Source of the DNA: Saccostrea echinata
Lineage: Eukaryota
DNA: 64,000 bases
Direction: 5' to 3'
Assembly (NCBI RefSeq): GCF_033153115.1
Contig: NW_026889755.1
Span: 8,928,001-8,992,000, forward strand
Positions 40,447-43,719 of this stretch are shown here, piece by piece. The notes beneath the pieces are model-generated. The model searched no databases and was not told where the DNA came from. It saw only the letters and a program-made list of their open reading frames with translations. The translations under genes and the position numbers were made by a program. Numbering within the stretch: position 1 is the stretch's first letter; each line of letters begins with the position of its first letter.

Positions 40447-40898
40447 GGTTATTTTTCAAAAAAGGATTTATCTATGATTATCCAATATACGTTATCGATC
40501 TGATGGTTTTAAGGGAAAAAAAATGTTTATATATGTATAGGCTGACCCTCATGCAATGTACACTTTGACATTTTACATAGACAGAAGACAAATATTTGGG
40601 GAGGGGGGATGAGAGACGTAATTATTGACAACAATGTAGAACCCGCATTTCACTCGTGATCTACCGACTTTTTCGTGTGAGACCTAGATAATTTTTAAGG
40701 TGTGAGACCTGACTAAAAATTAGGTTAAAGTTATTGAATATTTTCATTTCAATTGAAAACCAGTTTTTAAAATCTTAAGTTATTGCGGTTTTTTTTTTTT
40801 ATATATTTTCCAATGATATACCTCCAAAAAATCACATGATAATTCGGTATAAAAAAAAAAGAGGAGGAAACACCTACAGTTTTACTCTTACCGAGGCC
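40447..40898. promoter_or_regulatory. Divergent TATA promoter region
   Basis: TATATAAA on the minus strand (40533-40526). TATAAAA at 40848 with CAGT at 40877 on the plus strand. GTGTGAGACCT occurs twice (~40676 and ~40700). Confidence 0.6.
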
Positions 40899-42391
40899 AT
40901 GGCAAAGTATGTTGATTTTAATGCTTTGCACACATTTCATAAGGCGCATATAATTTCTTTAAAATTCTGTGTTTTTTTTTTTCTCTCTTTTTTTCCATAT
41001 TTTTAAAGAAGGTGCATTTGTGCTGATGTAATTGTGAAAGATTTGACAAGGATAGATGATATCGTGGGGGCGATACCCGCCCGTGAGTACTAGAATTTAT
41101 TATGGAACTTGAAAATTATCTGTAACAGGTCAGTTATATGTTTTCCTTTAATTGTACCCCATTATTTTTTTTATATAGAATGGACGATCTAGATAAGAAG
41201 AGACTAGCGAGGTATATGATTTTTGATTAACACATTTTATTGCCGATAGAAATGTATGATATATTCATAATAGTGTTATACAACAATTCTTTTCCTTTAA
41301 AAAAATGACTGCGAGTCCATATAATTAATATATGTTTCACATTACATTACAATACTCCTCTAAAGGAAGTGTACCGTAATTTAAAGTATTTTTTTAAGTG
41401 TTGAAAGAAAAAAATTCTGAATTTAGATAAAATATTACGTCTAATACGTATATATATCTATATTATTTTTTTTTTATTTATGTATAGTTCGCAAGAAAAG
41501 AGAAGATGTACAGTAGGGTCAGTAATTAAAAATAAAATTTAAACATAATATTATGTAAAGGAATTCCTTTTATGAGTGATTTTTATTATTATTATTATTA
41601 TTATTTGTTTGTTGTTGTTTTTTCAGTGTACCACCCAATGCCCCCCTGCGCAACGCGTTAGTATCCTATGCATACTATTTTTCCTTATACTTTTAACATA
41701 CCAATGTATCATTTTAATTTTTTACATTCACACATTTTACTTTGCAGTTAGAAACTGGAAATCATCACTATAAGTGATGAGTAAGTAAATCTCTACATTT
41801 AATCCAAGTCACGCTTCCTCTTTCTAATACAAAACATATTATTTATTTGAATATTTATTTATTTGAATATTTATTACTTTTATAGCTCTACTTTTGACAA
41901 ATACTGCCTTTTGGAGGGGTTGGGCTCAAGGTTCTTTTTTTTTTAAACTTGGCTTAAATCATATTCTATATATTATATGTAATACTAACATTATAATCTC
42001 TTACTGAAAAACTTTCTTTTCAGTTTCGACGAGACATGTGTCATGTAAGTCATAAATGATTTTCGTTTCATATTTTTGTATAAGGATATATGACATATAT
42101 ATAAATATTCATATATTTTGTTCGTTACTAGTACTTCACTTTGAAATGATCTCCGTAAACATTTTTTTTTTAAATTTCCTTTTTAGCGACGACTCAAAGG
42201 AGACCCAAAATAAAGAGGAGGAAGAGGGGGAAGAGGAGGGTGAGATCCCGTGAGTACATTTTGAAACATTTGAACCGATTTGAAAGGGGGTGGGGGGTAA
42301 ATACAGTATTTATATTCTAAAAGAACAATTGTTAAATGTCTCTCTTTTTTTTTCTTTCAGCTGCAGTCAAATCCCAAAGAAGTCTTCTTAA
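40899..42391 (+). pseudogene. Ten-exon micro-exon gene, 137 codons, all introns phase 2 (two in-frame TAGs)
   Basis: Coding exons 40899-40906, 41009-41128, 41179-41211, 41488-41517, 41627-41656, 41748-41780, 41886-41930, 42024-42044, 42187-42249 and 42361-42391. All introns are GT-AG with pyrimidine tracts; GCCATGG start; AATAAA at 42416. Confidence 0.78.
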
Positions 42392-43719
42392 AGAAGATCT
42401 TTGTAAAACAAATTGAATAAATTGAAAACAAAATGTACATGAAAAGTTATCTTTTTTTTATCTCATCAGAGGACTTGAAAAACACAAAGAATAGACAAAA
42501 AGTCAAAATTGAAATTTATGACGTGATCAGTAAACTGAAAAATGATAAAAAAATATTTAAAAAAAAAGTTTTTACATGAATTTGAATCTTGACTTTTTTT
42601 TATTCTATTCTTTGTTGTTTACGTATTATTTATTTTTAATATTAAATTTAATCTTGTCCTTAGCGACATTGAATCCGTGCATTTCACTGAGAAAAATGCT
42701 AATCTGTTGAAATGTCTATGACAACAAAATGTTTTTTATGCTTGAATACTCGCAATGAATAGTAAACTTACAAATGAAAAATATGCTATTGCGTTATTCC
42801 TATGCATAAATACTAATGAATGGCAACAAAATGTTTTTTTTTTTTTTTTTTTGTTTTTTTTTTGTTTTTTTTTTTACACATGATTACTTTCAACCAATAG
42901 TATTTCAAAAATGAATCGAATGCAGTTATATTATTCCAATTACAAATATTTATCAGACACTCTGAAATCAACTTTTAAGAAGTGTGGACATACGATCAAA
43001 ATTTAAAAAAATGTATCAATGTGGATATTGTTATTTAATATTTGGAGATTTTAACACGAATAGGAGTGTAATAACAGGAATTCATACCCAGATAGGTAGA
43101 AAATAGATTTTTACCCCAACGTTATTCAGTTTGAGAAAAAAAAAATGAAAAGAAATGAATGTTGAAGAAATTTATGGAAGGGTGAATTTTGAAATTATTA
43201 TTATTAATTTCGTTTTATTTTATTTATTTTTTGGAAATAATGTTTTATATCCTGAGAATAATTTTATGAATGCAAAATCAAATAATAATCCATACGTTGT
43301 TAGTTTAGATAATATATCGGTTATGAAAAACAAACTAAAACATTTAAAAATAGGTGGATAAAAGCCGCGAGGTTCTGTGTATTGCTATTAAAAGAAAACG
43401 ATTGGTTAAAGGGAGGTAATTCAAAAAAATACATTTTCAAGCATTACCGAATACTATTGGAAAGCTTTTATAAAATGTAAACACAGATACGATCAATTCT
43501 TCATGTTTAGAGGTAAAAATATACACCACGATATAATCACACAATGACGTACATATCTTTATATTAAATATATGTGTCTTAGGTTATGGTTTATGCCTAA
43601 TAAAGTTAACGTTTCGATCGACGGTGAATCATTTTCAGCTTTACATACAGAAATAATAATAAGATAATAATGCAAAATGAACGTCTAATTAATTTGAGGA
43701 TGATTTAAAATCTACTGTA

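Follow-up and report, generated by a model that had tools for sequence, protein, structure and literature searches.

A decayed copy of a spliced Maverick/Polinton micro-exon gene in Saccostrea echinata, and an excess of synonymous change in the predicted mature mRNA of its relatives

The window analysed here, a stretch of 64,000 nucleotides of the Saccostrea echinata genome (assembly GCF_033153115.1, contig NW_026889755.1, positions 8,928,001 to 8,992,000 of the forward strand), harbours a spliced accessory gene of a single Maverick/Polinton clade, in a decayed copy. Ten short exons make up the gene (Table 1). Its predicted product is a protein of 100-150 amino acids, which the comparison of related copies indicates to be under purifying selection. 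The same comparison indicates that the mature mRNA accumulates letter changes at several times the rate of the introns, the flanks and the other genes carried by these elements.

In this genome, a DNA search and searches with the neighbouring glycoprotein exon and with exon-2 peptides identified at least 23 exon-bearing copies of the gene, which belong to four subfamilies (A, 4 copies; B, 5; C, 9; D, 5). The DNA search of the genome with the window gene, a member of subfamily A, revealed diverged copies on contigs C6, C33, C61 and C5. All copies fall on five of the 425 contigs (C5, C6, C33, C36 and C61), mostly on C33 and C5. Fifteen copies were curated, and copy L060 was excluded from the curated table as too decayed; the copies are related, and counts across them are therefore not independent. 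Among the curated copies, the length of 106 of the 113 internal exons is a multiple of three. The remaining seven comprise five single-copy frameshifts and two last coding exons, in which the stop straddles the final intron. The first coding exons end in phase 2 in every case (14/14), and intron lengths modulo 3 are flat (45/39/38 of 122). The ratio of nonsynonymous to synonymous divergence (dN/dS) among diverged copies ranges from 0.04 to 0.34, and is mostly ~0.13.

A first-pass annotation, made from the sequence alone, had proposed a micro-exon gene spliced at phase-2 introns; this is supported, with peptide motifs and phase conserved in the four subfamilies. It had admitted that the splice sites were chosen by eye. 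Blind calls indicate that the pattern is not due to chance, although one donor had been misplaced. A frame-blind exon caller found three clusters of at least four exons on the two strands of the window, and only the cluster of this gene is made up of short exons with lengths in multiples of three. The blind calls in 16 gene regions number 127, false calls included, and 99 of them have such lengths. The frameshift and the stop of the window copy, the misplaced donor and the missing RNA support would fit an exon chain picked by eye from AT-rich non-coding DNA. This alternative is opposed by the blind calls, by the conservation of peptide motifs and phase in four subfamilies and by the dN/dS of ~0.13; curated exon conservation and dN/dS effectively refute it, and we give it virtually no chance. 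On the comparative evidence, the gene is almost certainly a real spliced gene.

The sequence contains all ten exons of the first-pass annotation, which placed exon 2 at 41009-41128; their lengths, AG acceptors and GT donors are as described, and joining them in frame yields the product that had been given. The TATA box (TATAAA at 40848) and the polyadenylation signal (AATAAA at 42416) are present as well, but the CAGT described with them is not conserved in sister copies. Seven of the eight internal exons (33, 30, 30, 33, 45, 21 and 63 nt) keep both splice sites in the sole full-length sister copy. Exon 2, described as 120 nt long, ends in fact at 41082 and not at 41128, at a conserved donor 46 nt before the one chosen. 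This donor (CC/GTGAGT, at 41082/41083) is matched in all four subfamily-A copies and in subfamilies B and C, and was chosen unaided by the frame-blind caller. The donor chosen by eye would imply an intron of 50 nt, and the shortest of the 122 curated introns measures 77 nt. With exon 2 ending at 41082, the first stop of the annotated product (EY*N) is intronic, located within intron 2. The second stop is real under the conserved junction, at 41749-41751, the first full codon of exon 6. Three sister copies have an exon 2 of 81 nt, and that of the window measures 74 nt, therefore the window copy is frameshifted. Very probably this copy is dead, a frameshifted pseudogene in a one-armed element.

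The position of the exon-6 stop is common to a copy on C33 (L022), with a different stop codon, and the remainder of that exon carries silent and conservative changes in the two stop-bearing copies. A second donor-like site was observed 46-60 nt into intron 2 in the window (41129-41134, the donor of the first-pass annotation) and in subfamilies C and D, and none in B; it is the strongest internal donor-like motif in subfamilies A and C. This site is too near the acceptor for a normal intron; it may control splicing, or lead to a short peptide made of the helix only.

The four subfamilies share motifs only, namely a CxC-helix with a C-P or L-P end, a basic cluster, an S/T-P site, PPNAP and an acidic tail. 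Exon number and size vary among them by whole in-frame units, through gains, losses and resizing. Each tiny phase-2 exon of 3n nucleotides corresponds to roughly one module of the predicted protein: CxC-helix-C, basic cluster, S/T-P, PPNAP, SUMO-interaction-motif (SIM)-like, or acidic tail. The SIM-like motif had been pointed out before; subfamilies A, B and C all retain its exon, with the core IITISD in A and C and the variant IISV[ED] in B. The basic cluster of exon 3 matches what we take to be the consensus of a nuclear localisation signal (NLS). AlphaFold predicted a single helix from the exon-2 alignment (residues 9-28, mean pLDDT 85). No Pfam family was matched by the micro-exon gene.

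Intron 1 is missing in subfamily D, and the other introns are retained. Exons are GC-richer than introns (0.41-0.46 vs 0.19-0.24). Retention of an intron yields an immediate stop at 62 of 123 donors, and phase 2 is the only phase in which a GTRA donor has this effect. No intron-intron similarity was detected within a gene (top z 2.3); an origin by recent duplication of exon plus intron was rejected on this ground.

The link to Maverick-like elements suggested by the first-pass annotation is borne out by relatives in complete elements, which have AGTAGT/ACTACT ends, integrase and capsid and in which the gene precedes pPolB, and we have little doubt that the gene is a Maverick accessory gene. 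In subfamily B (C33), the gene lies directly upstream of pPolB on the same strand, followed by genes for ATPase, protease, capsid, integrase and PC4. The one B element that was scanned possesses pPolB (PF03175, E 2e-48), rve (E 2e-10) and Peptidase_C5 above the cut-off, and Pox_A32 (E 2e-4) and a DJR-like match (E 0.005) below the cut-offs. AGTAGT...ACTACT terminal inverted repeats (TIRs) were found at both ends of two subfamily-B elements and of a subfamily-A sister element, and both complete B elements (C33) are flanked by 6-bp target-site duplications. In the A sister (C6), the inverted terminal copy lies 20.4 kb away and ends in ACTACT; this element has both termini, and its right arm is in common with elements bearing integrase and capsid genes. 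One C copy adjoins a full pPolB frame, with the cassette upstream but inverted. No core gene was found within 10 kb of the first D copy, and a single weak integrase match was found near the other D copies. The exon cluster was detected upstream of other pPolB loci in none of 14 regions, and the same caller recovers seven of eight known regions; therefore the gene looks clade-restricted.

The left terminus of the Maverick-derived element in the window (33146), from which the A copies are homologous to one another, interrupts a Gypsy pol frame. Beyond 43719 no right arm, no core gene and no right terminus of this element were identified. The window copy is thus neither complete nor autonomous, since it possesses only the left end, lacks the core genes and has lost the frame of exon 2.

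No target-site duplication was found for the A sister element, which joins two TIR types; its termini are only 77% alike, therefore a recombinant is suggested. The same sister carries a 10-kb insertion (L027:100-9000, L026:4980-10000), presumably Helitron-like. The capsid protein had no match in viral contigs. The genome contains dozens of long open pPolB frames (about 1,250-1,550 codons) of several families, with at least 199 matches. In two lineages (L052:5490-5540; L078), pPolB similarity reaches back past the first Met as far as an acceptor-like AG, a sign that a leader exon may be spliced on.

Silent change was measured as the share of recoded codons among codons for identical residues; frameshifted exons were excluded, as were intron pairs whose lengths differed by a factor of more than 1.6 to 2. 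Conservation is lower in exons than in introns (e.g. 0.74 vs 0.89, and 0.84 vs 0.95), and in diverged pairs the synonymous divergence (dS) amounts to 7-16 times the intron distance. Termini, intergenic, promoter and downstream DNA match the introns, at about 0.90-0.94 ungapped. In a subfamily-B pair, 21 of 51 codons are recoded (41%), vs 83 of 1022 (8%) in seven other open reading frames (ORFs). A C pair shows 33/98 (34%) vs 10/239 (4%) in the neighbouring gene (p 4e-12), and three C copies fetched later repeat the excess (22/60, 17/27 and 15/41, with introns at 9-15%). The comparison of the window copy with its full-length sister gives 20/47 vs 26/155 (p 6e-4), and further subfamily-A comparisons give 6/13 vs 18/229 and, for two sister copies, 9/27 vs 5/100. 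CpG transitions account for 23 of 205 synonymous differences only, and CpG decay was rejected as the cause. For the PC4-like gene (L037:4066-4626 vs L041), we observed a dS of 0.75, vs 0.06-0.32 for the other genes of that element pair.

The explanation that we favour, with a probability of about 0.5, is that the gene encodes an early nuclear regulator whose mRNA is selected to escape matching by Piwi-interacting RNAs (piRNAs). The protein would act in the manner of E1A, ICP0 or IE2, as suggested by its basic clusters, by the position of the gene and by the resemblance of IITISD to the SIM of Daxx, ICP0 and IE2, and may engage the host SUMO or cell-cycle machinery, so that the element is expressed. 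Its mRNA would have to be made first, and would thus face host piRNAs more than any other; such piRNAs could come from dead copies, the window copy among them. Selection would favour silent changes across the whole mature mRNA. Exons of about piRNA size would leave less for unspliced dead copies to match, their symmetry would render the skipping of weak micro-exons harmless, and phase-2 donors would often put a stop directly at a retained intron. Oyster piRNAs are described as ubiquitous and 25-29 nt long (PMC6128900), and introns are described as protective against HUSH in mammals (PMC7619638).

The distribution of the changes bears on this explanation and on its competitors. Divergence within introns shows no gradient toward the exons and stays flat until it steps up sharply at the splice sites. 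The ends containing untranslated regions (UTRs) are raised (last exon to polyA signal, 56/267; 5' UTR, 21/138), compared with controls outside the mRNA (promoter, 28/368; downstream, 106/1108, the latter including one probably non-homologous comparison of 52/160). In one C pair, the nearly non-coding last exon differs at 7/48 positions vs 9/375 in the flanks (p 8e-4, post hoc). Bursts of divergence are specific to exon and lineage. Flat introns, raised UTR ends and exon-specific bursts together indicate that the excess follows the mature mRNA. This is the most unusual feature of the gene, and one that was out of reach of the first-pass annotation.

The main rival holds that the genes encode old protein alleles under balancing selection, kept for instance for exclusion between elements or for host-partner specificity. 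The synonymous sites of the exons would then be simply old, and recombination or gene conversion would have homogenised introns, flanks and other genes. Such exon-over-intron divergence is described for gibbon opsins (PMC3213168), and dN/dS is similar to that of the core genes. Exon histories are mosaic, as exon 2 of subfamily C differs at 7/81 positions between two lineages and at 25/81 to a third, with flanking introns equidistant; the sister element with two TIR types and no target duplication also fits. This rival nevertheless demands a crossover resolution of ~10 nt around ten separate exons, intron positions beside the exons show no excess divergence, and divergence is raised in the UTRs as well as in the nearly non-coding last exon. 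We regard it as somewhat unlikely. The sharp steps, the involvement of UTRs, the exon-wise bursts and the difference in GC content would also be expected if exons were overwritten by reverse-transcribed mRNA of distant relatives, or if they mutated faster owing to chromatin or composition, with no selection on RNA sequence. Genome searches found no donor lineage with equally diverged introns, the introns are retained except for intron 1 in subfamily D, and neighbouring coding sequences show no excess, with few CpG changes; these points make overwriting or faster mutation very unlikely.

For expression, RNA reads were compared with exons 1-3 of a sister copy and not with the window. Three putatively conspecific polyA runs (~35 million records) yielded 10, 5 and 0 reads, and a fourth run yielded three short contigs, one of which crosses intron 1 unspliced; with coverage near zero, this yield is too low to speak for or against expression or to test splicing. 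The search for runs returned small shares only (0.05-0.07), possibly repeat fragments at the query ends. The first-pass annotation had pointed to frame-preserving skipping, as in schistosome micro-exon genes (MEGs); on this reading, the architecture would serve mainly to produce many isoforms, toggling linear motifs. The strict symmetry of exons in all four subfamilies, the single motif of each exon, the weakness of some donors and the conserved second donor-like site of intron 2 are in agreement with this, but no junction reads were found on the sister exons 1-3, the synonymous excess is left unexplained, and the absence of a signal peptide and the low dN/dS are unlike MEGs as described (PMC4350168). 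It is an unlikely main function, and could hold alongside piRNA escape.

Several observations weigh against an early regulator selected to escape piRNAs. Four of at least nine exons per copy exceed the length of a piRNA. The recoding of exons up to 21 nt is close to that of long exons (33% vs 41%), so length has no clean effect. In subfamily D the excess is slight or absent (2/66, 4/65 and 5/65 recoded, introns ~3%), and the closest complete pair has only a mild one (12/93 vs 128/1924, p 0.03). In the curated exon comparison, the SIM-like exon is absent from D copies, and the curated copies contain no LxCxE motif, only CxCx[DE]-like strings. No splice joints were found among sister exons 1-3 in the four runs at near-zero coverage. 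The search of an eight-peptide exon-2 profile against 1.84 billion representatives revealed no protein relative outside this genome; two matches were rejected, both being long tandem-repeat sequences.

Table 1. Features of the Maverick-derived element in the window, with positions counted from the first letter of the window.
Feature	Position	Strand	Basis or remark
Left terminal inverted repeat, AGTAGT start	33146..33520	+	homology with four other regions begins there
Glycoprotein, probable last exon (transmembrane segment, tail); frame broken here	38045..38291	-	by eye against homologous ORFs; splicing inferred
Glycoprotein, Thr/Ser-rich mucin-like exon, 534 nt	39123..39656	-	
Glycoprotein, 33-nt exon	39811..39843	-	
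Glycoprotein, exon 1: signal-peptide-like start, Cys domain, phase-1 donor	40131..40446	-	
TATA box (TATAAA)	40848..40853	+	TATA-like box at equivalent place in sister copies
Coding exon 1, 8 nt, phase-2 end	40899..40906	+	
Exon 2 (corrected), 74 nt: CxC, amphipathic helix, C-P end	41009..41082	+	sister-copy alignment, frame-blind caller
Second donor-like site within intron 2	41129..41134	+	exon-2 donor of the first-pass annotation
Exon 3, 33 nt, basic NLS-like cluster	41179..41211	+	
Exon 4, 30 nt, basic	41488..41517	+	relatives have S/T-P site
Exon 5, 30 nt, PPNAP motif	41627..41656	+	common to all four subfamilies (some C copies QAPNAP)
Exon 6, 33 nt, SIM-like EIITISD	41748..41780	+	in-frame stop at first full codon (window copy)
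Exon 7, 45 nt	41886..41930	+	donor weak, position conserved
Exon 8, 21 nt	42024..42044	+	
Exon 9, 63 nt, acidic	42187..42249	+	
Exon 10: stop codon, 3' UTR, AATAAA (42416-42421)	42361..42421	+	
Downstream non-coding element DNA	42422..43719	+	sister homology stops at 43719, repeat inserted there

The element in the window also possesses a glycoprotein gene (38045-40446, minus strand), which is divergent and whose introns are apparently in phase 1. It lies head-to-head with the micro-exon gene, and the two form a travelling cassette near one element end. The predicted product is probably a type-I membrane protein, and is a candidate envelope or attachment protein. Exon 1 of this gene has 21 matches in the genome; no Pfam family and no database relative were found for the glycoprotein exon, and all Atlas leads were below 0.9. 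Insertions without counterpart in sister copies were observed at 34281-35910, 36031-37969 and 43719-44529, and this last stretch includes a tRNA-like short interspersed element (43719-44019) and an 85-nt inverted-repeat element (44030-44529). The window further contains a decayed long interspersed element (25121-30563, minus strand), a decayed Gypsy element (31131-33150), a duplicated block of ~4 kb (385-5400 vs 54332-58044) and an array of ~165-nt units (6444-7571).

The element itself is of a known kind. Similar to Mavericks/Polintons (adintoviruses), the sister elements possess AGTAGT/ACTACT ends, a 6-bp duplication, pPolB, integrase, ATPase, protease and capsid. For Mavericks, accessory genes on the flanks of the core are described, and Barreat and Katzourakis describe intact vertebrate Mavericks in whose genes no introns were seen (PMC8097293). 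In contrast, the accessory gene described here has 9-10 spliceosomal introns, and the window copy lacks the core and the right end. Starrett et al. describe motif-rich Oncoid genes typically located upstream of PolB (PMC8502044). Like these E1A/E7/LT-like adintovirus genes, the micro-exon gene encodes a small motif-rich protein with cysteines and acidic serine-rich stretches and lies upstream of PolB (in B; inverted in C). However, it lacks LxCxE and paired CxxC, with a CxC and one later C instead, and it is spliced from micro-exons, whereas Oncoids are described as open reading frames.

As in schistosome MEGs, the coding region consists mostly of very small symmetric exons. MEGs are described as host genes of high dN/dS whose secreted products bear signal peptides (PMC4350168), whereas this gene is element-borne and nuclear-looking, with a dN/dS of ~0.13 and raised dS. 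No signal peptide was recognised by eye, and the N-termini are charged and Cys-containing in all subfamilies. The excess of exon synonymous over intron divergence is shared with primate L/M opsins (PMC3213168); these are tandem host duplicates with long introns, while here the copies are dispersed mobile elements with exons of 12-84 nt, and the UTRs are included. IITISD can be compared with Daxx IIVLSDSD and ICP0 IVISDS (PMC3174244). The SIMs of Daxx, of herpes simplex virus 1 ICP0 (SLS-4) and of human cytomegalovirus IE2 likewise have a hydrophobic core followed by S-D or acidic residues; the resemblance of the putative SIM, which lies in an exon of 10 residues, is limited to a short motif, and no RING domain is present. 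The introners of dinoflagellate Maverick-like viruses, described as transposon insertions (PMC11957031), are a different thing from the introns of this gene. We found no report of a micro-exon gene in a Maverick in the literature searched, which did not cover subscription journals.

Mavericks are annotated by long open frames and their core genes are described as intronless, so standard annotation misses genes of this type, and similar spliced genes may go unseen in other elements. An excess of silent change confined to one mRNA, with matched controls within the same elements, makes it testable whether piRNAs are escaped by changing the RNA while the protein is kept. If instead the homogenisation of introns and flanks around old alleles were the cause, it would amount to an extreme exon-wise shuffling of alleles between viral genomes. 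More tentatively, a virus-like element may have evolved a master early gene that is hard for RNA-guided immunity to see, with piRNA-sized, frame-safe exons and with silent sites and UTRs recoded while protein and introns stay stable. If true, this would provide a readable record of the transposon-piRNA arms race at single-gene resolution.

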